DNA of 52,687 nucleotides from Candidatus Binatia bacterium. Lineage in GTDB: Bacteria > Desulfobacterota > Binatia > HRBIN30. The position numbers were made by a program, and so were the translations under genes. Under the pieces are notes generated by a model. It worked only from the letters and a program-made list of their open reading frames with translations. It did not search any database and was not told the DNA's origin. The stretch lies in assembly GCA_046757585.1 (NCBI GenBank), contig JBHHYR010000003.1:1-52687 (forward strand), in the 5' to 3' direction. This document shows, in pieces, positions 9,174-25,824 of this stretch; position 1 is the first letter of the stretch, and each line of letters starts with the position of its first letter.

Positions 9174-12100
9174 TCAGACGACCTGCACCTCGCGCTGCTT
9201 GAAGAGGTGGTCGAGCCACAGCGAGGTGAGCTTCTCCGCGGTGGAATTCTGCCGGAGGCGTTGGTGCAGGAAGGAGAAGTCCACGTGGTCGAGGAGCTGG
9301 TCCTGGTTGAAGCAGCTGAACACCAACGACTCGCGTCCGGTGGCCGGATCGACGTGGCGCTGCAGGCACTGGGAACAGACTTCTTTGAGCATACACTGCA
9401 TCGGGGAATTGATCGAGCCGATACCGACGTGTTCGGCCCGCAGCAGGTCGCGGAGCGTTGTGTGTCGCGCCTGGCGGACAGCGTCCATCATCCGGTCCGA
9501 ACCGATACAGATGATACGATCGACGGTGTTGAGCGCAATGGAGGGATCGCCCAACGCGCCCCGGCCGTACTGCTCCATCGCCTGCACGATGTTTCCCACC
9601 ACGCTGCGATCCTGCGGGCGGTGCGTGACGATGGGGGGACCGTCATCCACGCTCCACACCACCAGGTCGCATGCACCTTCAATGGCGCGGCGTTTGAACA
9701 GATCGCCTGCGTGCTTGTAGCCCGCAAAGTAGATGACGCGATTGTGGCCTGCCTTGAGGGCAGCGGCGATCGAGAAAAGGACCGCATTGCCGAGCCCGCC
9801 ACCGGCCAGGAGGACGGTCTCACCCGCAGGAATCTCCGTTGGGCTGCCGGTTGGACCCATCAGCACGATCTCCTCACCCGGCTCGAGAATGGCACACAGG
9901 CGAGAGGACCCGCCCATCTCCAGTACGATGAGGGAAATTAGGCCGCGTTCAGGATCAGTCCACGCTCCGGTCAGGGCCAGGCCTTCCATAGTGAGGCGGA
10001 TGCCCTCGACGACCTCCGCCGTGCTTTCGTAGTTCTGCAGGCGGTAGAACTGACCGGGCCGGAAATTGCGCGCCGCCATCGGGGCACGGACGATGACCTC
10101 GACGATCCGGTCAGCCAGGCGGATCGCATCGACGACCTCCGCCCGCAGGCCGTCCTCGAGCACCTCGGCGAACCGGACCCACGCGTTCTCGCGTTCGGCT
10201 TGCTCCTCAAGTTCCTGTGCGGCGACCTCGCGTGCGAACAGGCGCGCGATCTGGCTGTACCCCAGCTGCGCCGACGCCATGGCTTTAACCACGTTCCCAG
10301 CGAACACCGGGTGTGCGTCCCCGTAGAAGGAGATGAAGCGGCCGGCCTTTTCATACGAGGTGAAGAAGCCGAGCCCGCCCGGGGGCACGGCTTCGAGCTC
10401 GAACCGGCCGTCACCCGCGTCGACCAGTCGGTGCATCGAGAAGAATTGCCGAGCAGCGTCGAGCTTGAACGTACCGGGGTATTCTTTCTCGTAGATGGTG
10501 TTCGGGTTGGTACCGGCCGCGACCAGCACCGTCCGGGCGGGGAAGTCGACCGTTTCGGCGCTGCTCTGCCATTTCCCGTCCCGGAGGACCATGCGCGTAC
10601 AGCGCAGCGCGCGCACATGCCCGTGCTCGTCCAGCAGGCATTTGGTGGGACTCATGCATTCGGTGAACCCAATGCCTTCCTCGAGGGACTTGATCACCTC
10701 TTCATGATTGAGGCGGTAGGCCGGCGCGTCCAATAGCCGTTTACGATAGACGATGGTCACGCCTCCCCACGAGCGCACGAGCCGAGCGAAATCGGGTGGC
10801 CGGCCGGCGGCGTGCGCGGCCGCCCGCTCCGCCTGCACCATCCGGGCGTGCCGCAACCAGGTGCGCACCGTTTGCGTCTCTTCTTCGTCAAGCCGGGCCC
10901 AGATTGCCGCTTCGCCGATGCGCCGTTTCAGGCGTTCGAACCGCTCGAGGGTCTTCTCGATCTGCGTGACATAATAGGCCTGGATTTCCGTGGCGGCATC
11001 GATTGCCGTCAGTCCGCCGCCAATGACGACGGCTGGTAGCTCCGCCTGCAAGTTCGTCAGCGAGTTCTTGCGATACGCGCCCTGGCCCTGCAACCCCATC
11101 AGGAAGTCCGACGCCTTGCGCACACCGCGGGCGAGGTTGTTCTTCATCCGGACGATCGTGGGCCGCCCCGCTCCCGCCGCGATCGCGATGTGATCGAACC
11201 CAAGGTTCCACGCGTCCTCGATCGTGAGTGTTCCTCCAAACCGTACCCCGTCGAGCAGCCGGAACTTCTTCCGCCGCATCAGGATGACGTAATTGATGTC
11301 CAGGAAGTTCTTGTCCCAGCGGACCGTAATGCCGTACTCGGCGACTCCCCCGAAGCCGAGTGTGGGACGCTCGGAGAGCGGACCGACGATGTCGTCGACG
11401 TCACGGATCGGGCGCGGAACGCGCCGTTTGGCGCCGCGCAGCGCCGGGGCCAGAGGTTCCACCTTGAGACCCTCAATGCCGACCACGCCGAAGCCTTCGT
11501 TTAGCAAGTGCTGCGCCAAGGTGTAGCCGGCCGGGCCCATGCCAACGACGAGCACGTTCTTACCGTTGTAGCGGAGCGGGCAGGGCCGCCGCGCGTTGAG
11601 TGGATTCCAGCGGGTCAGGAGCGAGACGATCTCGAAGCCGTAGGGGAGCTGCAAGACCTGGGTGAGAATACCGGTCTCGATCTGCGGGATGTTCACCGGA
11701 TCCTGCTTCTGGAAGATGCACGATTTCATACAGTCGTTGCAGATGCGATGCCCCGTGCCTGCCAGCATCGGGTTATCAATCATGATCACTGCAAGCGCGC
11801 CGATCGGTTGTCCCTCCCGGTAGAGCTTGATCATTTCGGAGATCTTCTCGTGCAGCGGACACCCGTCGAGCGCAATACCGAGCGGGTTGCGCTGCACGGC
11901 GCCGTCCTTCGTATGCAGGCCGGTGGTACAGGAGTCCTTGCCGCGCTCGTGACATGTCAGGCAATAGTACGCCTCGCCCAGATTCTGCCGCGGCGTGAAG
12001 CGGCGATCGGTCAGATCGAACCCGTCTCGATGCCTGCGGCTCTCCGGGGGTCCCATGAAGAACTCGGGCAGGTCGGCCCGCGGCTGAATGCGAGCGACGA

Positions 12101-14693: not shown

Positions 14694-15509
14694 TCACGAC
14701 GGCCCGACACGCAGTGTGATGCCCCCGTCAACGGAGATGGCCTGGCCGGTGATGTTCCGCGCGTCAGCGCTGCTAAGGAATACGGTGAGCTTGCCGATGT
14801 CTTCCGGTGTCTGTTCCCGGCCCAACGGGACGCCACGCTGCACCTGATCCAGGAAGATGTCGCGCGGCTCGCTGTCCGCATATCGAGGCACGCTCATCTT
14901 CAGCAGCATTGCCAGCATTTCCCAGGCGCGGGTCCACAGGAAACCAGGGCAGATGGCGTTGACCCGAATGTGCGACGCCGCAAGCTCCAGCGCCAGACTG
15001 CGGGTCAGCGAAATGACCCCTGCTTTGGCGGCGCCGTACGCCGGAATCGCCACCGTGGGCAGGAGTCCGGCAATCGAGGCAATGTTGACAATGGACCCTC
15101 CGCCGCGTTGTTGGAGGTGCGGGATGGCCGCCTTACTTGCCGCAAACGTGGTGCGCAGGTTCGTGGCAAGCTGATCGTCCCAACCAGCCTGATCGATGTT
15201 CGTGAAGGGATTGCCGATCGCGGTTGCGCTGTTCTGCCCCCCTCCGCCGGCATTGTTGACCAGAATATCCAGGCCACCGAAACGGCGGACGACATCAGCG
15301 GTCGCCGCGCCGATCTGCCGCTCGTCGGAGACATCGGCCGCGAGTCCGACCGCTTCACCGCCGAGGCCGGCGGCTGTTGCCTCGGCGTCGGAGCCGTCGA
15401 GATCGATCAGTGCCAAGCGGGCACCTTCGGTTGCGAGGCAGCGGGCGATGCCAGCCCCGATGCCCCGAGCTCCCCCTGTTACGATCGCCACCGTGTCCTT
15501 CAGCCGCAT
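14694..15509 (-). CDS. Short-chain dehydrogenase/reductase (NAD-type)
   Basis: TGGARGIG, NNAG, YGAAK, VNAICPG, ITGQ..SVDGG; RBS AAGGAGG. Confidence 0.93.
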   Translation of the reverse strand: MRLKDTVAIVTGGARGIGAGIARCLATEGARLALIDLDGSDAEATAAGLGGEAVGLAADVSDERQIGAATADVVRRFGGLDILVNNAGGGGQNSATAIGNPFTNIDQAGWDDQLATNLRTTFAASKAAIPHLQQRGGGSIVNIASIAGLLPTVAIPAYGAAKAGVISLTRSLALELAASHIRVNAICPGFLWTRAWEMLAMLLKMSVPRYADSEPRDIFLDQVQRGVPLGREQTPEDIGKLTVFLSSADARNITGQAISVDGGITLRVGPS

Positions 15510-15678
15510 GCTTGACCCTCCTTAAATAAAGATAAGCCAGCCTTCACAAGCGCCTGGTGTCACAGGCGCATGCATGACGGAATGACCAGTTCTTTTGGTC
15601 GGAGCACTGCCCGGGACGCCCTCTCCCTATTCCAAAGAAACGCGATATTCTTTCGACGGCGAAGACGGGCGGCATGGG

Positions 15679-16518
15679 TCAAGGTCCCCTGCGCCGGTGA
15701 CGCCGCCGGCCGTGGAGCAATGCCAGCGCGGCAGGCAGCAGCAGGAGCCAGCCACTCCCCGCGGCGCCCACGACACTTGTCTGGCACCCCGAGCCGCTGC
15801 CGTCACCAGAGTTTGCCACACTGTTCGGATAGATTGACAAGATCCCGCCGATATCATCGGACTGCAGCCGATCGATATTACCCTCGCGGCTATTCATGAT
15901 CGCGACAACGTCCTGGCCATTGTCGTCGGGGTGATCGAGGCCGAGCACATGTCCGAACTCGTGCAAGAGCACACGGCGGACGTCGTTGAGGACACGGCCG
16001 TTCACGACACGGATGTCCCCGTCGTACGCATTCCAATCCACGTTGGCGTTTACCAAGACCGGCGCATTCAGCAGTGCTCCGCTTGTACGCTCGGCGCAGT
16101 TGTTCGTCAATTCGATCACGTCACCGAACCCGCTGCCGCAGAAGTCGCCCGCGAAGAAGATCGGGTTGTCGCCCACTGGTCCCGTGTTGGGGCACGCATG
16201 ATTCGGCCCGCGGGGCCCGCAGGGGTCGAAGAACTGGCCCCCCACGGTGACCGTAAAGCGGAAGGCGGCCCCGACGCTGTTCCAGTCGTTGGCCGCATTG
16301 ATCGCGTTCTGATCCCAATTGAGGGTCCCGTTGAGTAGCACCGTGCCGGGCGCTGGGCTCCCCAAAAACGCTCGCAACGTGGCACCATGCTGAACCCAGC
16401 GGACGCAACGACCGTTGATCTGCAAACAGGCAAACGCCTGCGCAGCGGTGGCACGTAGCACGACGACCAACACGATGGCAACGCAGGCCAGGTTCCGTGT
16501 GAGGCAGGCTCGGCTCAT
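15679..16518 (-). CDS. Matrixin-family (metzincin) metalloprotease with a C-terminal MYXO-CTERM-like sorting signal
   Basis: Signal peptide (AQA/AFA); HEFGHVLGLDH; Met-turn AIMN; tail GSGSGC + hydrophobic helix + RRRHRRR. Confidence 0.88.
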   Translation of the reverse strand: MSRACLTRNLACVAIVLVVVLRATAAQAFACLQINGRCVRWVQHGATLRAFLGSPAPGTVLLNGTLNWDQNAINAANDWNSVGAAFRFTVTVGGQFFDPCGPRGPNHACPNTGPVGDNPIFFAGDFCGSGFGDVIELTNNCAERTSGALLNAPVLVNANVDWNAYDGDIRVVNGRVLNDVRRVLLHEFGHVLGLDHPDDNGQDVVAIMNSREGNIDRLQSDDIGGILSIYPNSVANSGDGSGSGCQTSVVGAAGSGWLLLLPAALALLHGRRRHRRRGP

Positions 16519-16521
16519 CCG

Positions 16522-17151
16522 TCACCTCGCCACGCCGGCGCCCCCGCTCGGATGCGCCAGCTCGCTGGCGACGAGCTCCAGAAAGCCATCGAGTGTCAAC
16601 GGCGTTGCGGCGCCATCCTGCCCGACCGATCCGCGGCGCAGCTCACGACCGGCCCTGCCGAGCACCGGCGCTCCATCGCTGGCCTCCACGATATCTCTGC
16701 GTCGCTCACGATCGAAGCGCACGTGAAACCGGCCCTGGAAGATCCCAACCAACGGGCAGATATCACGGCCGGTACCCGCAACGAACAACACGTCGCGCTC
16801 GCCGACCGTGAAGGACGGCATGTCCGGAATGTGCACCGCCACATCGCCGGTCGCACCACCATAGAACCGCAGCGTCAGGACCGCCCCGGCATCCCCCTTG
16901 AGGACGTAGAGGTCAGACAAGGTCACCGCAGTCCATGGCGCTCCCACTTCGTCCGTTTCGTGCGTGATCTTGCTCACCGTGCCCACCACGATTTGCTCGG
17001 CCCGCGCCACGAGCTCCGGAAAGTCCCGCTTCACGACCACCATCGCGTTGACACCCTGGGGCGTGGCCAGCAGGATCCCCGCTACGGTGCACCACCCGAT
17101 GCCCGCGCGCACGAGAAACCGCGCCTTCACGGGGTTCAAAGAATACAACAT
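16522..17151 (-). CDS. Secreted hypothetical protein, prodomain/OB-fold-like partner of the matrixin
   Basis: Signal-like N-terminus; ELV..AEQIVVGTV, YGG, P.F..GER.VLF and GIFQGRF pattern resembling N-terminal domains of bacterial matrixins; ends 3 nt before the matrixin start; RBS GGAGG. Confidence 0.7.
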   Translation of the reverse strand: MLYSLNPVKARFLVRAGIGWCTVAGILLATPQGVNAMVVVKRDFPELVARAEQIVVGTVSKITHETDEVGAPWTAVTLSDLYVLKGDAGAVLTLRFYGGATGDVAVHIPDMPSFTVGERDVLFVAGTGRDICPLVGIFQGRFHVRFDRERRRDIVEASDGAPVLGRAGRELRRGSVGQDGAATPLTLDGFLELVASELAHPSGGAGVAR

Positions 17152-17286
17152 GCCATGGCCTCCAGGGAGCGAAACTCCGGCACACGGTAGCAGACGCACC
17201 GAGCTGAGACCACCAGGCAAGAAGCCATGGCCCGCTTGGTCGGGACCTGCAGGCTACGCGCTGCGGTAGCGGGCGGCGCCTGCACG

Positions 17287-18591
17287 TCAGTACGTGTACT
17301 CGATCTGTGTCGTGTAGATCACATCCGCCCGGATGCCGTCACGGTTCACCGGGAACTGAAAGTTGCCAGCGATCACGAACTGGCCGAAGGGGTTGAACTT
17401 GAAGCCCACTGCTGACTGGATCACGTCGTCGTTGATGCCATCCCGCTTGTCGTCGTGGAAGCCAAGGAAGTCGGCGGCCAGCGTGAGCCAGTTCGTGGCA
17501 CGCACATCGGCGCCGGCAATCCATCGCGCCTGACTCACATCTGCACCACTCCGAAAGGAGTAGCCAAGGTTCAGGTGGGGGGAGACGCGGCCAAATCGCT
17601 TGGACGCAATCAACCAGGGGGTAAACGTCGGGTCGCTGAAACCTAGGAAGTCACCGGCATTCCCGGTGGGCAGGGTCAGGACACCGATGGCCGCAAGGTT
17701 TGCGAAAGGCGTATCGTAGAAATGCCACTTGGTACGCAGAAAAAGGTCGCCGGTGCCGAAAGCGGAGGCTTCGAATCGATCCGTGGCGCAGCGAAAGTTG
17801 CCTGCTTCACACAGCCGGCCGGAACCGGCGCTTAGTTCCCGGGTGCGGGGATCCACCAAGAAGGTCCCATTGCCGGGCCGGCCGTCAGGCCTCTGGATCA
17901 TCGTCACGGCGCGACCGCGCATCCGTGCGTGGTTGACCGCCAGTGCCATGCTCACGTCAACGGAGTCGGTGAGCCCGAAGGCGGCGCCAAAGAACAGGAG
18001 ATCAAACGAAAGCTTGAGGTTGAGCCGCGTGCGCAGCCGGTCATCCTTGAGCTTCTCTCGGTCGGAAGGCAATAGGGTGTCCAGGAACGCGGCCGAAAAG
18101 GCGTCCTGCGAGAAGGACAAGCGGTTGATCGAATCCCCCTCCAAGGTGTCGAAGTCGATGCGCGTGTAGGAAAAGCTCAGCGTGCCCGTATGCCGTCCCA
18201 GCGTCTCGGCACGCTCCGCCAGCGGTGCGCCAAGGCTCTGCGGGAGCCGCACGAACGTGTCGAGCTCAGGGTCCCATGCGAAGCGGAACGCGCCGCTGGC
18301 CGAGGGAATCGGGGCCTGCGAGCGCGCCGCAGCCAGCGCCGCCGACAGCGACCGGAACTGGTCAGCGAAGCGCAGCCGGGCCCTCGAGGCACGTTGGTCG
18401 GTTATGGCCGCCGCCGTCGATAGTGTGCCGCCAAAAAGCCCTGGAATCCGGCGATCCAACGGCCTCGCGCCTGCGGGTTCTCCACCCGCACCCAACACGA
18501 GGCAGCTGGCGAGCACCGTTCCAAGTATCCACCGCCACGAACGACACCACCACCCACCAACGTCCACCCTATCGTGCAGCGGGCCACTCAT
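17287..18591 (-). CDS. Outer-membrane beta-barrel 'transporter' (MetA-pathway/SphA-like); start may be GTG 18660
   Basis: Signal peptide; GTGDLFLRTKW, TLPTG, HLNLGY, amphipathic strands; C-terminal aromatic (IEYTY). Confidence 0.75.
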   Translation of the reverse strand: MSGPLHDRVDVGGWWCRSWRWILGTVLASCLVLGAGGEPAGARPLDRRIPGLFGGTLSTAAAITDQRASRARLRFADQFRSLSAALAAARSQAPIPSASGAFRFAWDPELDTFVRLPQSLGAPLAERAETLGRHTGTLSFSYTRIDFDTLEGDSINRLSFSQDAFSAAFLDTLLPSDREKLKDDRLRTRLNLKLSFDLLFFGAAFGLTDSVDVSMALAVNHARMRGRAVTMIQRPDGRPGNGTFLVDPRTRELSAGSGRLCEAGNFRCATDRFEASAFGTGDLFLRTKWHFYDTPFANLAAIGVLTLPTGNAGDFLGFSDPTFTPWLIASKRFGRVSPHLNLGYSFRSGADVSQARWIAGADVRATNWLTLAADFLGFHDDKRDGINDDVIQSAVGFKFNPFGQFVIAGNFQFPVNRDGIRADVIYTTQIEYTY

Positions 18592-18649
18592 GGATCCTGC
18601 GAGCTGGAACGGTGTGAGCCGCCTTCGGCTGACGGCGCCCGCGCAGGGG

Positions 18650-20566
18650 TCATCGGACACCGCCCGCAATCTTCCACTGTCCGGCGTCGCGGACCAGGAT
18701 CTTGGTCAGGCGGACCTCCAAGCGGACCGATTTTCCACTTTGCTGGTCGATGAAGCGATCCCGACGCGTGTACGATACCGCCACACCCTCGGCATGTGGG
18801 GCGATCGTCACGTCACTGAGCTGCACGGTCAACCCTGAGGCATTCTGCAGGTAAGCCCGCAGGGCGTCGCGTCGCCGCGCGGAGAATGACACGTACAGTG
18901 CAGCCAGGCGGTCGACGTCCTTGTCTTCGAGGGCACCCCGGTATTGCTCGAGCACATCGCGTACGTCTGCTTCCACGGTCCCGCGCGTTGGCTCGGCTGC
19001 GTACGCAGCCGCTCCCCACCGGAACGCAAATCTCCAGATGCTCTGTTCCCGACGCGACTGTGGCTCGGCGGTCGGCCCTGGGACCAGCGGCGGGGTCGCG
19101 CGAGCACGTGGCGGGGTTTGGCGCTCAACGACGCCTTCGGTCTCGAGCAGAAGCCGATAGGCGTCAACGTCGGTGTTCGTTTCCGTCCGAATCAGTTTCC
19201 GTTCTTCCGGCGACAACTCGACGGGCAGCCGCCGCAGCATGCTTATCACCAGCTTCTTCTGCAGAGCGAAGAAATCGTCTTGGCGCCCCTCAACGCTATC
19301 GGAACCCTCCTGCACGCCAGTTGTCGCGTTGATGATCCACGCGTCGATGCGGATGGTGTTTCCCACGACGTTGAACGAGCCCGTGACCAACCTGCCGATA
19401 CCGAGTTGCCGCGCGACGTATAGATTGTCCAGGCCGCGGGCTCGGGCAATCCGGTCGATCAGCTCCGGCGAATACACGTGCAGCGCCCGCACTTTGCTCA
19501 GCTCGGTATTGAACGCGACCCGCAGGGCTTTCCCTATCCAGTCGTGTTGCGGGTCGGCACGCAGGTTGCGAAATGCCATCACCCCGATCGAATTGGTTGC
19601 CGGTTCGCTAGCCGGCTCTGGGGCGGCCTGGGCAACCGAGGCTGCAGTGGGAGGAGATCCGGTCGGTTTCGGGCCACGCGGTACCGCCGCGAACATCAAG
19701 TCCGTTCCCTCCATTTTGTGGTACGGATGCTGCTGCGCGCCGGTCAGGCGGGGCACGACTCGGGCAACGTACCCGAAGAGCTCGGACAACGACACCAGAC
19801 CATCGCCGTCGGCGTCGGCCCGGCCCTGCAGGCCTTCGAGCACAGCGTACGTAAAGACGCCGTGCGCCAGCTGCGGTTCCTCCTTCGAGTCCTCACCCGG
19901 TTTCGTAGCGGCGAGCAAAAAAAAGCCCTCACCAACCGACATGCCGAGGTAATCCGCTGAAACCAACCCGTGCGCTGCCAACTGTAGCGCACCGGCGTGG
20001 CAGGTGTCGAGCATAACCACGACGCCGCGCACGTCGCGCCGCAGCACCCGAACCATCTCGTCGAAGTCCGACATGCGCAGCCCAGCGGTTAGCAGATTAT
20101 CGGGCGTCGCCGGGTACGGCAAAAAGTAATAGCTGTTCGTGTTGAGGTCCTGAACGCCATGCCCCGCGAAGAAGATCACTACGACGTCGTTCGGCCCGGC
20201 TCGGCCGAGGAACCGCTCCATGCTGTCGAGGATGCTCTCGCGGGTTACCTTCTCGTCAGTCAAAACCAAAGTCCTGACGCGGTCGTACAGCCGCCGCTTC
20301 CCCTGCCACAACAAGGTCGCGTCAATGGCCCGGGCATCCGAAGCCGCGAACTGGAGGTTGAGATCGGCGTCCTTGTACCGACTCACGCCGATCGCGAGCA
20401 GCCAGAGCGTGGATCTGGCCGGGCCGGACGTGTCTGGTACAGCGACCGCCGGGGCGAACCGTTGGGCCCGCGAATCGGTCTGCCCAGGCCGGTAGACCGC
20501 CCACGTCATGAGCAGACCGGCCACGGCCCCCCCACTGACGACTATCAATAGCCCGCGGAGCGTCAT
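18650..20566 (-). CDS. Caspase-family (peptidase C14) protein: N-terminal TM/signal, C14 domain, TolB-N/FlgO-like domain, C-terminal NTF2/SnoaL-like domain
   Basis: LLAIGVSRY..LNLQFA..DA; catalytic dyad FFAGHG and LDTCHAG; HGVFTYAVLEGL.G.AD.DGDG.VS..EL..YV...V; SIGVMAFRN..DWIG; LEDKD..RL. Confidence 0.9.
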   Translation of the reverse strand: MTLRGLLIVVSGGAVAGLLMTWAVYRPGQTDSRAQRFAPAVAVPDTSGPARSTLWLLAIGVSRYKDADLNLQFAASDARAIDATLLWQGKRRLYDRVRTLVLTDEKVTRESILDSMERFLGRAGPNDVVVIFFAGHGVQDLNTNSYYFLPYPATPDNLLTAGLRMSDFDEMVRVLRRDVRGVVVMLDTCHAGALQLAAHGLVSADYLGMSVGEGFFLLAATKPGEDSKEEPQLAHGVFTYAVLEGLQGRADADGDGLVSLSELFGYVARVVPRLTGAQQHPYHKMEGTDLMFAAVPRGPKPTGSPPTAASVAQAAPEPASEPATNSIGVMAFRNLRADPQHDWIGKALRVAFNTELSKVRALHVYSPELIDRIARARGLDNLYVARQLGIGRLVTGSFNVVGNTIRIDAWIINATTGVQEGSDSVEGRQDDFFALQKKLVISMLRRLPVELSPEERKLIRTETNTDVDAYRLLLETEGVVERQTPPRARATPPLVPGPTAEPQSRREQSIWRFAFRWGAAAYAAEPTRGTVEADVRDVLEQYRGALEDKDVDRLAALYVSFSARRRDALRAYLQNASGLTVQLSDVTIAPHAEGVAVSYTRRDRFIDQQSGKSVRLEVRLTKILVRDAGQWKIAGGVR

Positions 20567-20809
20567 AAAATCACCGTGGACAAATCCTCGCCCATTGCGA
20601 CTGCGGGTTGCAACTGGCATCTGCGCAGAAAGACGGGAGGGGATCAGTCAAGGGAATCCATGGGGTTGGGTCAACCTGTTCGCAACCTGAGTGATTGTCT
20701 GCCTCATCAGAGGCCGGAGTGCAATAAACCGCCTACTTTTTGCATCTCTGGTTGCAGAAGCACATGGCACGGAGAGAGGAGCGGGCGGCGGGAGTCTATG
20801 CCGTAGCGG

Positions 20810-21787
20810 ATGGAGGACCCACGCAGCCAAGCGCGAGAGGCTCGGGAGCTGATTGGCCGCTGCCTCGCCGGAGACGCGCAAGCCGTGCAGCACTTTCAGC
20901 AGGCGTACGGGGAGCTGATCTACGGCTATCCGATCCGCGTCTACCGTACGCCGCCGGAGGACGCCGGTGACTTCTATGTCTTCGCCTTCCAGCAGGGCCG
21001 CATTTTCCGCCGCCTCCGAACGTTCGAAGGCCGGGCCCCCTTACGCGCATATCTGCTGGGTTCCGTCCTCGACGATCTCGTGCTCGAGTGGAAACGTGGC
21101 GAGCGCCGGGTCGAAACGGTCTCCATCGAACGGTTCGGTGATGTCCCCGACCCTGCCGGGCCGGCCAGCCAGACGGCTCCCGAAGCTCCGCCCCGGCCTG
21201 GCGGCGCACCATCGTTGAACGACATGCTGGCGACTGTCCCACCGTCCAAGGCGGTGGTGATGAAATTGCTCTATGTCGAGGATGCCGACTTGAAGGCGCG
21301 GGACATCGAGTACCTCGCGGACGTCTCCGGCCGGAGTGTGCCCGAGGTGCTGGCCGCGGTGGCTGGCATGCGGACCACCGTCCGAGAGCGCGAAGCTGGG
21401 CTGAAACGCCTCGAAGATGCCCTCGAAGCCGTGCAGGCGTGGATCCACCTGTACGAGCGGCAGCTCCGGCGCGTCAGCGAAGATCTGGCCGCCGTGCCCG
21501 CGGAGACCGTGGCGGCCGCCCGGCTACGCGAGGAGGCAGCGCTGCTGGAACACAAGATCCGCCGGCGACACCAGCAACGCGCTCGCCTCTTGGCGCAGGC
21601 GCAGCGACGCAAGGTGACGGCACCATACAAACATATCGCCGCGCTCCTGAACACCAGTGTCGGGAACGTCTGTTCCCAGATCGCTCGGCTTCGCAAGGAG
21701 TTGCTGGCAAAGGCCGGAACCCGGGGACAGGAAACCGGGCTTGAAAAACGAAAGGTAAGAGGTGTAGGGTCAAGTGAGGAGATCTGA
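20810..21787 (+). CDS. ECF-type sigma-70 factor with a long insertion in region 4
   Basis: Sigma2: LI.RCLAGD..A...F...Y, DA.DFY, F.GR.PL..YL; sigma4.1 LATVPPSKAVVMKLLY; sigma4.2 HTH YKHIAALLNTSVGNV.SQI.RLRK.L. Confidence 0.8.
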   Translation: MEDPRSQAREARELIGRCLAGDAQAVQHFQQAYGELIYGYPIRVYRTPPEDAGDFYVFAFQQGRIFRRLRTFEGRAPLRAYLLGSVLDDLVLEWKRGERRVETVSIERFGDVPDPAGPASQTAPEAPPRPGGAPSLNDMLATVPPSKAVVMKLLYVEDADLKARDIEYLADVSGRSVPEVLAAVAGMRTTVREREAGLKRLEDALEAVQAWIHLYERQLRRVSEDLAAVPAETVAAARLREEAALLEHKIRRRHQQRARLLAQAQRRKVTAPYKHIAALLNTSVGNVCSQIARLRKELLAKAGTRGQETGLEKRKVRGVGSSEEI

Positions 21788-21897
21788 GTTAAGCTCACCC
21801 CTCGGGGCGCTGAGGTGAGGGAGAACGTGGCAGGCGCTGCGCAAGCCGGGGAGTGGAACGCGAAACGCGGTCGAAGACCGGAAAGAGGAGAACAGGC

Positions 21898-22722
21898 ATG
21901 GCTGATGCTCGGTATCTGATCTCTGAGTCCAAATCCGCTGAGGTGGGTTCCTGCCCCGAATTTGAGGACCTCTCCCGCTTCGTGGATGGCGAGCTGAGCC
22001 CACGCGAGAGCGCCGATGTCGAAGTGCACCTGAAGCGTTGCGCGTGGTGCTCGGGGCTTACCAAAATGATTAGTGCATGGTTCGACGCCGCAGCCGCTGC
22101 CAGCGCCGAGGAACGTGGCGACGCACGCTGCACCACGACGGAGCTGCTAGTCGGATACTTGACGACAGGCCTCACGGCCAGCGAACGCCGTGACATCGAC
22201 CGTCACGTCCGCGGCTGCGACCAGTGCATCCGAACGTTGACCTTGCTCCAGCGCAGGCTACTGAGCGCCCCGGAAATGGCGGCTCCGGTTCCGGCAGCCG
22301 TTGTCGAACGGGCCAGGGCCGCATCCACACGGGACGTTGGTCATGCCCGGCCTGCGGTGGGCCTGGGCGAGGCGTGGGCGGCCCTCTCGTCGGTCGGCCG
22401 CCGACTCTCGGCGCACATCAAGCTGCCGGTGCTGGTACCTGCGGCCGTCGCCGCTGCCGCGCTGCTCGTTGTCGCGACGGAGCAAACGTGGGTGACACCG
22501 GCGCCGCAGCGAGAACTGACTCGGGCGGTGCCGATGCATCAGACGCTCCGCGTCACCGCGCAGGAGGCGATCGTGCGCAACCAGCCAAGCACACGTACGC
22601 AGATCGTAGGCACACTGCAGCACGGGACGACGATCGAAATCGCTGGTCAGGAAAGAGACTGGTATCGTGTGACCTTGCCCGATGGCACAGAGGGCTGGGT
22701 CGAACGCCGCGCGTTCGAGTAG
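21898..22722 (+). CDS. Anti-sigma factor: two zf-HC2 (ZAS) domains, TM helix, C-terminal bacterial SH3 domain
   Basis: C...HLKRCAWC and C...HVRGCDQC; TM LPVLVPAAVAAAALLVVA; SH3b VRNQPS...G..DWYRV..PDG.EGWV; RBS GAGGAG before ATG 21898. Confidence 0.85.
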   Translation: MADARYLISESKSAEVGSCPEFEDLSRFVDGELSPRESADVEVHLKRCAWCSGLTKMISAWFDAAAAASAEERGDARCTTTELLVGYLTTGLTASERRDIDRHVRGCDQCIRTLTLLQRRLLSAPEMAAPVPAAVVERARAASTRDVGHARPAVGLGEAWAALSSVGRRLSAHIKLPVLVPAAVAAAALLVVATEQTWVTPAPQRELTRAVPMHQTLRVTAQEAIVRNQPSTRTQIVGTLQHGTTIEIAGQERDWYRVTLPDGTEGWVERRAFE

Positions 22723-22743
22723 TTCTCCCGCGGTCGCTCACGA

Positions 22744-24540
22744 ATGTTGCACCGGACGACTGGGGAGGAACGCGGCCCGGCCACGCCGCGGCTCTTGTCC
22801 GGTCGCGCCGCCGTAGTCTGCGCTGCCGCGCTCCTGTTCGCGGCAGCGGTCTGGCTCCCCGTGGCTGCCGCGGAACCACTGGTCTGTGGCGTCCCGCTCG
22901 CACGGCAGCTCAAGTCGGGAGCAACCGATTCATTTCAATTCTCCCTGTCGCCCGGCACGGCTCTTTCACTCGAGGCCGTCGACACGTCCCGAACCATTGA
23001 TTTGCTCAAGATCAGTTTCTCCCCTTCGCAAGAAACGTGTCTCGGCGATCTCGAAATCAGGAGCCCAGGCGAGATGGCCTCCGTCGAGGTGTCCGATTGC
23101 GTCGGCCAGGACGCGGGAGACTACACGATTGCGCTGTCCGTCGTGTCGCCGGGACCGGACAACTGCGGGGTGCCGCTCCCGTGTGGGTCGACGCTGCAGG
23201 GTGAGCGTCTGGACACCCTCGGGGAGGTGGATTCGTATACGTTTCCGGGTATCGAGGCGGACCGAGTGAGGCTGACGGCGACCGACGTGGCAGGCACGAT
23301 TGGTTGCGTGCGTTTGCGAGTCTTCGACCCGGGCGGGTCCCTAGTGGAGGATCTGTTCAATCAGCCTTTCGACGAGCAGTTGACGAGAACAGGTACGTAC
23401 ACTGCCCTGGTGAGTGCATGCGTGGAACCCCGAACAGGGCCGTACACGATCACCTGGCAGCCGTCCAGCTGCCCAGGGGAAGCCGCGCAGGGGCAGCTCG
23501 CGTACGTGGCGAACTCCGACGCGGGCACCGTGAGCCTGATCGACCTGACCGCGCTGGCGACCAGGGCGGTTATCCCGCTTGTGCCCCCCGCACAGGCCAT
23601 GGTCGCCGCCCCCGTGGGCCTCGACATCAGTCCGAACGGCGGGTTTGCATACGCGACGTACGGCACCTCCAGCACCGCCGTACTCATCAACACCACGACC
23701 AACCTGATCGCGGCATCGGTTCCGGTCGGATTGGATGCTGCCGGCGTTGCCTTCACGCCCGACGGCGCCTCGACGTACGTCATCTCCAACGATCTGGGGG
23801 GTATATCGGTCATCGACAACAAGACGAATAGGGTGACTGGTATCATCGCCCCTGACGTCGGGTTCTCCGAAACGATCCAGTTCGCCACGGATGGCGCTAC
23901 GGCTTTCGTTGTGTCCGATGACCTGGGGGGGCTTGCGGGGATCGACACCGCGACGAACGAGATAACCAGCTTCAGCGACCTTGACCTCGGCTTCTTTGAT
24001 GCGTTCGCCATCAGTCCCGACGGTGCTTTTGCGTATGCCGGTGTCCTGGACGGAATCGCCGTGATTGAAACGGCGACGAACACGATCTTCGACATGATCA
24101 CGCTCGACGACGAGCCGTTCGGTATCGCCTTCAGCCCGAGCGGCGGCCGCGCGTACGCCTCGTTACCTGACGAAAGCAAGCTCGCCGTCATCGACACGGA
24201 GTCGAGTCGGGAAATTACCAGGATTCCGGTCGGGGTCGATACGGGGGGCGTTGCCGTTTCAGGGGATGGAGCGCTCGTGTATGTGACGGACTTTACGTCT
24301 GCCGCCACGGATGTCGGATTCTGGGTGATCGACGCGGCGACGAATCGAGTCGTTGGTGGCATTCCGACCATGGGAGACGGCCCTGCGAGCGTGGTGCTGA
24401 CAACGGCACCAGAGGGTCTGTGCGTGGGCGACGCGGAGGGTGAGACGAAGGTGACCGTCGACGAGCTGGTGCGGGGTGTCAACCAGGTTCTCAACGGTTG
24501 TCCAGGCCGTTTCCCGAGGATGTCGGTTCTGGCCCCCTAA
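22744..24540 (+). CDS. Secreted YVTN/YncE-type beta-propeller with N-terminal PPC-like domains and a C-terminal dockerin-like motif
   Basis: Signal AAA-EP; D.Y.F / GPYTI PPC-like units; repeated AYV.N...TVS.ID, SPDG..AY, IPVG; tail CVGDAEGETKVTVDELVRGVNQVLNGC. Confidence 0.85.
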   Translation: MLHRTTGEERGPATPRLLSGRAAVVCAAALLFAAAVWLPVAAAEPLVCGVPLARQLKSGATDSFQFSLSPGTALSLEAVDTSRTIDLLKISFSPSQETCLGDLEIRSPGEMASVEVSDCVGQDAGDYTIALSVVSPGPDNCGVPLPCGSTLQGERLDTLGEVDSYTFPGIEADRVRLTATDVAGTIGCVRLRVFDPGGSLVEDLFNQPFDEQLTRTGTYTALVSACVEPRTGPYTITWQPSSCPGEAAQGQLAYVANSDAGTVSLIDLTALATRAVIPLVPPAQAMVAAPVGLDISPNGGFAYATYGTSSTAVLINTTTNLIAASVPVGLDAAGVAFTPDGASTYVISNDLGGISVIDNKTNRVTGIIAPDVGFSETIQFATDGATAFVVSDDLGGLAGIDTATNEITSFSDLDLGFFDAFAISPDGAFAYAGVLDGIAVIETATNTIFDMITLDDEPFGIAFSPSGGRAYASLPDESKLAVIDTESSREITRIPVGVDTGGVAVSGDGALVYVTDFTSAATDVGFWVIDAATNRVVGGIPTMGDGPASVVLTTAPEGLCVGDAEGETKVTVDELVRGVNQVLNGCPGRFPRMSVLAP

Positions 24541-24573
24541 CCGCACCATCTCGCCGCCGCGCCACTGTGCGCG

Positions 24574-25824
24574 CTAACGTTCCGTACGCCCGGCACGGGC
24601 CGCAGCCGCCGTCGCACCGTTGCGCAGGATGTTGCGGGCAATAAAGCTCGGCTCGACCGCTGCTTGTGCCGCGAGGAGCGCGCTCTTCAGGCTCAACGCT
24701 TCGCTAGCGAGCGCGTCGTCGTCGCTGGCGGCGATGACGAAATCGACGAGGTGTAAGGCAAGCTGAAGATCGCCCGCTTCCTGGAGTGCGCGGGCGCGGC
24801 CGAGGAGCGCGGCGGCACCCGCCAGGGAGGTCACCTCGCGAGCGATGGCTCGCGTGGGCGCAGGAAACAGGTGCGCCGGATTGCCGTCGAACCAGCCCGC
24901 ATACCGCCGCAAGATGCCGTGCACCACGAAGGTGGGGCAACCGTAAATCGGTCTCAGGTACGGCTTGCTGGCCAGAGCGGGGGGGAGCGCATGCACTTCC
25001 GCCAGAATCTGCTCGGCCCACATACCCGCGTTGAGACGGCGGACCACCTCGTCGTGCAGCCACCGCAGCGCACGTGCCGTGTCGAGGCAGGCGTCCCGGA
25101 CCGCGGCGGCGCCAACAATCGCTGGCCCATGCCCAGGCGCCAGCGCCACGGGCTCTCGCGCCGCGATCGCTTCGAGTGCGGCAGCCCACTCCACTTCGTA
25201 GCGCTGGACCTTGAAGGGGTTGCCGATGTTGGGACACGACCAGATGAACAGGTCACCGCTGCAAGCTGTGCGACGTTCAGGAACCCATACCCAGGTGGCG
25301 TCATCGGTCTCGCCCAGCGCGTGCTGCAGATGGAACGTGAGCTGGCCCACACGCAGCACCATCGTGTCGCGATAGAGCACGTCGGGATAGAAGAACTGCT
25401 CGCGGACCACGACCTTGGCCCCAGATGGCAGGGCAAATTGAATGCGATTGATGTGGTCATGCTGCCCGTTCAGTTCGAGATAACGATCGAAGCGCGCTGG
25501 GACCCGCTCATGCGCGACGATTCGCGGTCGCGGATCGCCACGCCGCGCTGCGTCATCAAGCAGCGCCCAGACACCGAAGGCGTGGTCGAAGTGGCCGTGT
25601 GTGTAGATCACGTACCGAATTGGCTGACCGGACACGGCGCGGATCTGTTCCAACAGCCGTGGCCCCATCGGACGCACGCAGGTATCAACGACCACCAGCC
25701 CGTCATCGGTCTCGATCACGGTGGAATTGCCAAAGGCCGAGATCAGGTGAACGCCCTCGGCGATGCGTTCGGGTCGGTCCTGCCAGTAATAGAGCCCCTC
25801 CATCGCAGGAGCTTCAGTTGCCAT
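24574..25824 (-). CDS. Alkyl sulfatase-like MBL hydrolase with dimerization domain (no SCP-2 domain)
   Basis: THGHFDH, GETDDATWVW, GDLF...PN.GNP, PGHG, RRY.GW.DGNPAHL. Confidence 0.88.
   Translation of the reverse strand: MATEAPAMEGLYYWQDRPERIAEGVHLISAFGNSTVIETDDGLVVVDTCVRPMGPRLLEQIRAVSGQPIRYVIYTHGHFDHAFGVWALLDDAARRGDPRPRIVAHERVPARFDRYLELNGQHDHINRIQFALPSGAKVVVREQFFYPDVLYRDTMVLRVGQLTFHLQHALGETDDATWVWVPERRTACSGDLFIWSCPNIGNPFKVQRYEVEWAAALEAIAAREPVALAPGHGPAIVGAAAVRDACLDTARALRWLHDEVVRRLNAGMWAEQILAEVHALPPALASKPYLRPIYGCPTFVVHGILRRYAGWFDGNPAHLFPAPTRAIAREVTSLAGAAALLGRARALQEAGDLQLALHLVDFVIAASDDDALASEALSLKSALLAAQAAVEPSFIARNILRNGATAAAARAGRTER

Follow-up and report, generated by a model that had tools for sequence, protein, structure and literature searches.

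A conserved head-to-head gene cassette pairing a caspase-like protease with an ECF-like sigma/anti-sigma pair in one order of Candidatus Binatia

In the RseA/DegS/RseP pathway of sigma-E, a membrane anti-sigma factor receives a periplasmic site-1 cut and is then removed by an M50 site-2 protease, and the sigma operon is autoregulated. To our knowledge, the first cut of anti-sigma factors of the extracytoplasmic function (ECF) type is known for only a few model pathways, and bacterial caspase homologs are numerous, with almost none that we know to have an assigned substrate. In craspase (Cas7-11/Csx29-Csx30-sigma), an RNA-guided, cytoplasmic TPR-CHAT protease reportedly controls an ECF-type sigma factor by cleaving a partner. 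The anti-sigma factor DdvA of Myxococcus xanthus carries a periplasmic caspase-fold domain, whose self-cleavage ahead of RseP is proposed and not demonstrated in the cited part of that account (PMC11506125), operons combining metacaspase genes with sigma-70-family factors were noted in 2012 (Asplund-Samuelsson et al., PMC3501461), and ECF54 sigma factors have CHAT proteins as genomic neighbours and are described, in the cited section, without an anti-sigma factor (PMC8999054). Here we analyse a 52,687-nucleotide (nt) stretch of DNA from a Candidatus Binatia bacterium (contig JBHHYR010000003.1 of assembly GCA_046757585.1), which we refer to as the window, in which genes for a caspase-like protease and an outer-membrane barrel stand head-to-head with genes for an ECF-like sigma factor, an anti-sigma factor and a secreted PPC protein. 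These five genes are a conserved cassette of one Candidatus Binatia order, an undescribed and lineage-specific variant of a known theme whose proposed mechanism is plausible but unproven.

The cassette shares with DdvA and its sigma factor DdvS an ECF-type sigma factor, a transmembrane zinc-binding anti-sigma factor and a periplasmic caspase-fold module with a His-Cys dyad, the proposed first cutter before RseP in the cited part of that work (PMC11506125). It differs in that the TPR-CHAT module is fused to DdvA and is proposed to act on itself within a dimer, whereas the Binatia protease is a separate, p20-only protein with its own gene, C14 and not CHAT, and the Binatia anti-sigma factor ends in an SH3 domain. 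The FlgO-like and SnoaL-like domains of the protease, the outer-membrane barrel and the secreted PPC protein belong to the Binatia cassette only, and the output of DdvS is a CBASS/CRISPR island, whereas that of the cassette, judged from a promoter-like motif, would be the operon of the sigma factor itself. The operons noted in 2012 likewise keep a bacterial C14 homolog and a sigma gene together in several lineages, with a function never tested according to the cited part of the paper, but they are same-strand arrangements, found in Myxococcus, Anaeromyxobacter, Haliangium, Sorangium, Ralstonia and Fibrobacter (PMC3501461). The flanks (up to 8 kb) of the 40 nearest non-Binatia caspase-domain loci contained no ECF-like gene, and the Binatia cassette is therefore no simple ortholog of those operons. 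M50 proteases are found in the Binatia genome as in the RseA/DegS/RseP pathway, but in that pathway site 1 is cut by a PDZ serine protease that porin C-termini activate, whereas the Binatia candidate is a caspase-fold cysteine protease encoded beside its own barrel. Craspase and ECF54 resemble the cassette in the known or suspected control of an ECF-type sigma factor by a caspase-fold protease that cleaves a partner, and differ from it in being cytoplasmic and of the TPR-CHAT type.

A sequence-only reading of the window had held that no system of this composition was described, which is too strong given DdvA/DdvS and the metacaspase-sigma operons, as far as the cited parts of both sources go (PMC11506125, PMC3501461). 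Our literature search found nothing linking Binatia or Binatota to a caspase, or Binatia to a sigma factor; Table S2 of PMC3501461 and the context tables of PMC7826278 may hold related entries. What is new in the Binatia cassette is a C14 protease that stands on its own and bears FlgO-like and SnoaL-like domains, the SH3-capped anti-sigma factor, the FapF-like barrel, a hairpin within the sigma-4 region and a predicted regulon of one operon. The co-occurrence of the two arms and the envelope targeting of their products, on which the earlier interpretation was built, stood up to analysis; its inclusion of a matrixin pair, its emphasis on a propeller and its claim of novelty did not, and the caspase arm lacks a sigma-type motif in the window. 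The interpretation that we favour, tentatively and at somewhat less than an even chance, is a self-contained envelope signalling cassette in which the caspase relays onto the anti-sigma factor.

A head-to-head gene set conserved within one order

The locus comprises seven open reading frames (ORFs), four on the minus strand and three on the plus strand, arranged in head-to-head arms with the coordinates and strands that the sequence-only reading had given. The caspase gene (18650..20620, minus strand; likely start Met19, at 20566) faces the gene for the 325-amino-acid (aa) sigma factor (20810..21787, plus strand) across a divergent intergenic spacer at 20567..20809. The length of 243 nt previously given for this spacer holds if the caspase begins at Met19, and falls to 189 nt if its open frame is followed to 20620; the spacers of relatives are mostly ~190–400 nt long. 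All products but the sigma factor carry signal peptides or transmembrane segments by sequence, in line with the envelope targeting proposed earlier, and the flanks are indeed unrelated housekeeping genes, which differ from genome to genome.

For comparison we used 41 related genomes from the same order of Candidatus Binatia, together with a search that took a single genome from each species and yielded 78 caspase loci, 37 of which were near-full-length and came from Candidatus Binatia or loosely labelled metagenome-assembled genomes. All ORFs of these 37 loci and the window (38 loci) were clustered without prior labels. Besides the caspase, present in all 38 by construction, the clustering recovered the barrel in 36 loci, the sigma factor in 34, the anti-sigma factor in 31, the PPC protein in 29 and a further secreted protein, p232, in 6; as several loci stop at contig ends, these counts are lower bounds. 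The next real families reached at most 11 of the 38 loci and were housekeeping genes (methyltransferase, MTHFR, ABC ATPase). The five-gene arrangement is far beyond chance.

Full-length caspase relatives occur in ~32 of the 41 related genomes by hand count, three of them in two pieces, and the matches from other phyla are restricted to the protease domain. The sigma profile finds 39 genes in 31 of the 41 genomes, and 34 of the 39 lie head-to-head with a caspase gene when sigma and caspase matches are crossed by hand. Co-occurrence of the two arms had been set beforehand as the test on which the earlier proposal could fall, and these counts bear it out. The head-to-head arrangement is kept in three families, down to 33–39% protein identity and with all flanking genes changing, and even the copies at this level of divergence retain the caspase/sigma pair, with a double-ZAS/transmembrane/SH3-like anti-sigma gene following the sigma gene in two of them (L029 and L030). 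Two genomes carry tandem cassettes with the full gene set in each, the copies being no closer to one another than to those of other genomes, and these duplicates are old. Both arms are missing from another family of the order, f3 (each in 0 of 3 genomes), and the sigma profile gave no match at E ≤ 1e-15 in a sample of 150 further genomes of the phylum. The cassette is carried by uncultured bacteria from soil and sediment that all belong to a single Candidatus Binatia order. Spearman correlations of 0.46–0.76 between the pairwise similarities of the cassette proteins were left unused as evidence, because linked genes share a history and the comparison had no control.

The sigma/anti-sigma arm and its promoter-like motif

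The spacers between the arms are otherwise unalignable, yet a motif, GCAATAAA-N13-GCATC(C), recurs in them in the sigma direction, ~89 nt before the sigma start in most cases. In the window it lies at 20717..20754 on the plus strand, where a -35-like element GCAATAAA (20721–20728) is followed by a 13-nt spacer and a -10-like element GCATC (20742–20746), and in spacing and shape it fits an ECF-type promoter. A weight matrix built from 25 sites detected a forward site in 31 of the 32 spacers scanned; among the seven spacers outside the training set, six scored 26.6, 23.4, 20.7, 18.3, 17.7 and 13.6 bits and one had none. Across both strands of the 4,398,394-bp genome the window site stands alone above 19 bits, at 33.3 bits against 18.9 for the runner-up; five weaker sites (16.3–18.9 bits), inside or before unrelated-looking ORFs, were not counted as part of the regulon. 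If the cassette sigma factor reads this motif, its regulon here is the sigma operon alone, with the PPC protein as the sole non-regulatory product. An adjoining ZAS anti-sigma gene and a self-directed promoter-like motif, measured against -35 and -10 elements about 16–17 nt apart, are features by which an ECF factor is recognised, and both are found here.

Unlinked arms occur at L111, L112 and L114, in genomes G004 and G001, and the motif is also found ahead of sigma arms without a caspase neighbour, at L111 (18.2 bits) and L112 (17.4 bits). A candidate motif for the caspase arm, GGTTGCAA, is limited to 8–10 of the 32 spacers and was rejected, and a caspase-arm promoter is for this reason unconvincing. 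The spacers of seven loci (L035, L037, L039, L041, L042, L044 and L061) share a CATGGAAGCGCGATGCGG-like stretch downstream of the motif, in the sigma leader; no unusual fold was seen in the sigma leader of the window (z-score -0.40). Rfam gave 0 matches over the whole window, and generic scans of 15300–24900 were uninformative: sigma-70-type promoter-like sites numbered 1 (1.2 expected) and terminator-like sites 7 (6.7 expected).

The sigma factor scores 34.9 bits against TIGR02937 (cut-off 42.9) and 18.9 bits against Sigma70_r4_2 (cut-off 25.7), and a profile search found no match to Sigma70_r2; with the family profiles under their cut-offs, we term it ECF-like and do not file it as a member of the ECF class (group 4). 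A profile of 21 homologs reaches SigH of M. tuberculosis at 7.7e-6 through the sigma-4 helix-turn-helix, the sigma-2 alignment being weak, and a hidden Markov model built from six ordinary ECF sigma factors of the same genome matches the cassette sigma factor in 30 Binatia loci (1e-9 to 3e-4). The earlier label of ECF sigma factor thus finds some backing in these two comparisons, but misses the curated cut-off.

An AlphaFold2 model of the sigma factor places a ~115-residue antiparallel helical hairpin (aa 155–270) between the first and second sigma-4 helices, with predicted local distance difference test (pLDDT) blocks of 82–97 over aa 141–300 and 84–97 at the hairpin. All 21 homologs in the alignment conserve this insert, for which RNA polymerase, the second ZAS module or DNA would be a possible contact. 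We know of no ECF sigma factor with a comparable insert in sigma-4. A Foldseek search with the model returned nothing at E ≤ 0.001, coiled coils dominating the matches and sigma-E (1or7) appearing at E 0.77. The main text of an ECF re-classification paper (PMC7826278) does not contain the words 'caspase', 'CHAT', 'SH3' or 'insertion', and its supplementary group-context tables may list related contexts.

The anti-sigma gene (21853..22722, plus strand) lies 66 nt downstream of the sigma gene, and its product matches zf-HC2 in two stretches (6.8e-13, 48.9 bits against a cut-off of 22.2) and SH3_3 (9.3e-13, 48.6 bits). Residues are given in ORF numbering and conservation from an alignment of 26 homologs. 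The first zinc-binding anti-sigma (ZAS) module (aa 34–66, nt 21952–22050) is optional and kept in 13 of the 26, and in the second (aa 93–125, nt 22129–22227) H118, C122 and C125 are invariant in 26/26 and C93 is kept in at least 90%. This H-x3-C-x2-C motif in the N-terminal domain is followed, as in ZAS anti-sigma factors, by a transmembrane segment (~aa 191–210) visible in the sequence, and one ZAS motif, the transmembrane segment and an SH3 domain are the constant core of all 26. The periplasmic part measures ~80 aa and contains a single SH3b domain (aa 239–285, nt 22567–22707). The linker ahead of it is variable except at Arg224 (nt 22522–22524), ~15 residues past the transmembrane segment and 15 residues ahead of the SH3_3 match, where R-[A/S/G] is kept in 26/26 homologs, one row being displaced by one column.

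The caspase–barrel arm and the secreted proteins

The caspase matches Peptidase_C14 (PF00656) at 9.1e-17 and 61.9 bits, against a cut-off of 21.4, over aa 75–302 (nt 19715–20398, minus strand), which correspond to a p20-type domain. Its His-Cys dyad is intact, as the sequence-only reading had it, with His154 (AGHG) and Cys207 (DTCHAG) unchanged in 20/20 homologs, and in alignment with yeast metacaspase-1 (4f6o) its GHG and D-x-C-H-x-G motifs fall on GHG and DSCHSG. D95 and D205 are also invariant among the 20 homologs and may belong to the acidic S1 pocket that confers Arg/Lys specificity in metacaspases and orthocaspases, on an assumed correspondence with the TbMCA2 structure. As no transmembrane segment follows the N-terminal hydrophobic stretch, itself a transmembrane or signal segment, the protein is read as wholly periplasmic. 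The p20 domain contains an EF-hand-like loop, DADGDGLVSLSELFGYV (19766–19816, aa 269–285); the DADGDG stretch of this loop (aa 269–274) is conserved in the family, with D273 and G274 in at least 90%, and gives weak calmodulin-type matches, a hint of possible calcium control. The p20-only orthocaspases are described as calcium-independent.

Behind the protease domain lie a FlgO/TolB_N-like domain (aa 325–500, nt 19121–19648, minus strand) and a SnoaL-like domain (aa 584–652, nt 18665–18871, minus strand; PF13474, SnoaL_3, at 3.9e-5). The former resembles the periplasmic FlgO/TolB_N-like module of membrane adenylate cyclases, Ser/Thr kinases and TIR-TPR proteins, and a Binatota adenylate-cyclase cluster ends in the same FlgO/TolB_N-like and SnoaL-like module as the caspase. 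Domains of both kinds typically occur in the periplasmic regions of transmembrane signalling proteins, and the C-terminal part of the caspase behaves as a portable periplasmic module. Partial matches to aa 320–654 (module at nt 18665–19648, aa 325–652) were observed in many ORFs of 500–800 aa in related genomes.

The caspase also matches the caspase model of PADLOC (1.6e-16) and the EACC1-associated caspase model of NCBIfam (86.7 bits), which would suit a conflict or cell-death system in which the caspase is an executioner, released by the sigma switch upon attack by a phage or competitor, in the manner of craspase or of defence islands that carry a caspase; sigma/anti-sigma pairs do regulate defence islands, DdvS/DdvA being an example in the cited part of that work (PMC11506125). 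Both matches are, however, confined to the generic protease domain, the NCBIfam score falls under the 140-bit cut-off, and the six remaining proteins have no PADLOC match. The periplasmic location of the protease among envelope partners, the lack of any recurrent nuclease, NTPase, CRISPR or toxin gene in the 38 neighbourhoods and the vertical, not patchy, inheritance of the cassette in one order make a role in defence highly improbable.

The core outer-membrane β-barrel gene (17287..18669, minus strand; likely start Met27 at 18591, C-terminal end ...EYTY) encodes a protein without family matches in profile searches. An AlphaFold2 model based on 20 homologs is a β-barrel (pLDDT 74.8, predicted TM-score 0.70), and a Foldseek search of the PDB with this model ranked FapF (5o65) best, at 4.6e-11 and a target-normalised TM-score of 0.61–0.68, followed by a COG4313 channel (4rl8) at 2.9e-8 and a TM-score of 0.65, FadL and porins scoring much lower. 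A strongly conserved motif, PLDxRIPGLFGG (18400–18470, aa 68–85), stands directly after the signal peptide and might serve as a plug or as a strand on which a periplasmic partner docks.

The last gene of the sigma arm (22744..24540, plus strand) encodes the 598-aa secreted protein, which has six YVTN repeats (TIGR02276, 76.5 bits) in a propeller at ~aa 288–560 that varies among genomes. The sole part matched in relatives is a PPC-like domain pair (aa 48–245, nt 22885–23478); PF04151 (PPC) exceeds its cut-off in 2 of the 10 homologs scanned, the window copy scoring 16.4 bits. EF-hand or dockerin-like tails, mostly below cut-off, occur in 8 of the same 10, and the window copy has a Cys-flanked tail of this kind. 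The sequence-only reading was right about the YVTN repeats of its secreted propeller, but the conserved part is the double PPC domain, which it overlooked, and the propeller is variable.

Two secreted proteins encoded beyond the barrel are accessory. The 279-aa metzincin (15679..16518, minus strand) has a signal peptide, a Peptidase_M10 match (PF00413, 1.6e-8, 35 bits against 24) and a zinc site, HEFGHVLGLDH, that fits HExxHxxGxxH, and it ends in a Gly/Cys-transmembrane-Arg-rich sorting tail that matches MYXO-CTERM (TIGR03901) at 20.4 bits against a cut-off of 20; the earlier notion of a CTERM-anchored metzincin therefore stands for the enzyme and is marginal for the anchor. Its neighbour p232 (16522..17220, minus strand; 232 aa, likely start Met24) belongs to no known family, and the label 'prodomain-like' given to it earlier finds no support in Pfam, NCBIfam or PDB sequence searches, the PDB returning only chance-level histone matches (E > 0.5). 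The nearest named Atlas clusters are TIMP/NTR (0.82–0.89), a lead only, and p232 might be an inhibitor or a chaperone of the metzincin. Look-alike clusters of 191–204 aa exist in Verrucomicrobiota and Acidobacteriota. The two proteins accompany each other in 6/6 loci that have them, and with only 6 of the 38 loci they are accessories and not, as previously proposed, members of the system.

The likeness of the barrel to FapF brings in a different reading of the whole locus. In the Fap amyloid system of Pseudomonas, a plugged 12-stranded barrel, FapF, is encoded together with a periplasmic cysteine protease, FapD, and acts as a gated exporter of polypeptides for which FapD is required, according to the cited part of the work (PMC5557850). 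By analogy, the caspase and the barrel would process and export the PPC protein, and the metzincin where present, with the sigma pair setting cargo expression only, the SH3 domain sensing cargo or cell wall and the anti-sigma factor left untouched by the caspase. Apart from FapF being the best structural match, this agrees with the PPC protein being the sole non-regulatory gene behind the single strong motif, and with three sigma-less loci (L023, L024 and L116) in which the caspase still has large secreted proteins of the PPC/propeller/dockerin-tailed type as neighbours; at L023 (genome G006, contig C8) a 22.0-bit motif at 11544–11581 (plus strand) stands directly ahead of the gene for such a protein, 1039 aa long, PPC- and dockerin-tailed and facing the caspase. 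The small-molecule channel of COG4313, however, matches the barrel about equally well, and the FapF-type N-terminal coiled coil is not seen in the barrel model, whose sole long N-terminal helix is the signal segment. FapD is a C39 and not a C14 protease, FapF has a trimerising coiled coil, and the cited part of the Fap account describes no sigma/anti-sigma pair (PMC5557850). No amyloid genes were seen in the cassette, its ORFs showing no evident amyloid-type repeat protein and the 38 neighbourhoods no further conserved family, a search aimed at amyloid repeats not having been made; a folded propeller would be an improbable passenger of a 12-stranded barrel, and the Arg kept in the anti-sigma linker of 26/26 sequences is left unexplained. 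Export of this kind is the main rival to the signalling reading, though rather unlikely, and it can be partly true together with signalling; if true, it would be a new protease-dependent export route for Binatia surface proteins.

Weighing a proposed caspase relay onto the anti-sigma factor

Under the signalling reading that we favour, the plus arm would be an autoregulated operon whose ZAS anti-sigma factor holds the sigma factor at the inner membrane, with the SH3 domain at its periplasmic end, and the minus arm would be the input device, a periplasmic metacaspase-type (p20-only) protease co-transcribed with a FapF-like barrel. A cue at or through the barrel would activate the caspase, which would then make the site-1 cut in the anti-sigma factor after Arg224, in the linker from the transmembrane segment to the SH3 domain, and an RseP-type M50 protease would complete its degradation; the genome has six M50 matches (PF02163, the best at 227.2 bits) as candidates for this site-2 protease. 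The freed sigma factor would transcribe its own operon from GCAATAAA-N13-GCATC, giving more of the secreted PPC protein. We infer that the sigma factor reads the motif, that the anti-sigma factor binds the sigma factor and that the caspase cuts the anti-sigma factor, and likewise the nature of the cue. The most specific point in favour is the conserved juxtamembrane Arg, which would suit a metacaspase-type cut, and in the cited metacaspase assays the substrates and probes bear Arg or Lys ahead of the cut (PMC9626678). A predicted complex of the caspase (aa 60–656) with the periplasmic part of the anti-sigma factor reached 0.14 against a mark of 0.32 and was counted neither for nor against binding.

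Several observations weigh against such a relay. Four of the 39 sigma arms have no adjoining caspase (G004:C43, G001:C181, G001:C203 and G017:C639), and in G004 the caspase/barrel(/p232/M10) operon is on another contig than the operon for the sigma factor, the anti-sigma factor and the PPC protein. Conversely, 4 of the 37 loci (L050, L051, L065 and L067) have the caspase–barrel pair and no sigma arm, and G006, a genome 97% complete, has the caspase and no sigma factor that the profile can find; the protease must therefore have some sigma-independent role. The window has no caspase-ward copy of the motif at 9 bits or more, and reverse sites of at least 14 bits are found in 4 of the 32 spacers. 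The sigma factor lies under the curated ECF cut-off and its N-terminal, sigma-2-like half is poorly modelled, and Arg224 could be structural, the residue after it being S (L029) or D (L030) in the most distant anti-sigma factors.

The same exceptions invite the view that the locus consists of two neighbouring but functionally separate operons, an envelope-stress ECF unit and a periplasmic protease/porin unit, linked by descent. The arms are parted in G004, G001 and G015, the sigma gene of the last (L113) lying 7.5 kb from the caspase on the same contig with several ORFs of at least 200 aa between them, each arm stands alone in some loci, no shared promoter motif is seen in the window, and all carriers belong to one order, with the sigma factor in 0 of the 150 other genomes of the phylum sample. 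Mere descent sits poorly, however, with a head-to-head order that persists in three families while all flanks change, with old duplicates that retain both arms together and with a family, f3, that is without both, and we consider two unrelated operons improbable.

In its most specific form, the relay would be a split caspase system and the first of its kind: a FapF-like channel would pass a surface cue to a p20-only metacaspase, maybe calcium-sensitive by way of its DADGDG loop, that serves as private site-1 protease, its cut after a single conserved Arg of an SH3-capped anti-sigma factor would free an ECF-like sigma factor with a unique 115-residue coiled-coil hairpin in sigma-4, and the regulon would be the sigma operon with one PPC protein. 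Taken with all these parts, we think it unlikely to be right as it stands. The cassette is in any case a compact and strongly conserved test case, with five genes, one promoter and one output gene, and the prediction is that Cys207 makes a cut after Arg224. If the relay is true, a separate caspase-fold enzyme would gain a defined periplasmic signalling role, and the idea behind DdvA, a fused domain that cleaves itself, would be widened to a relay between two proteins with an outer-membrane channel.

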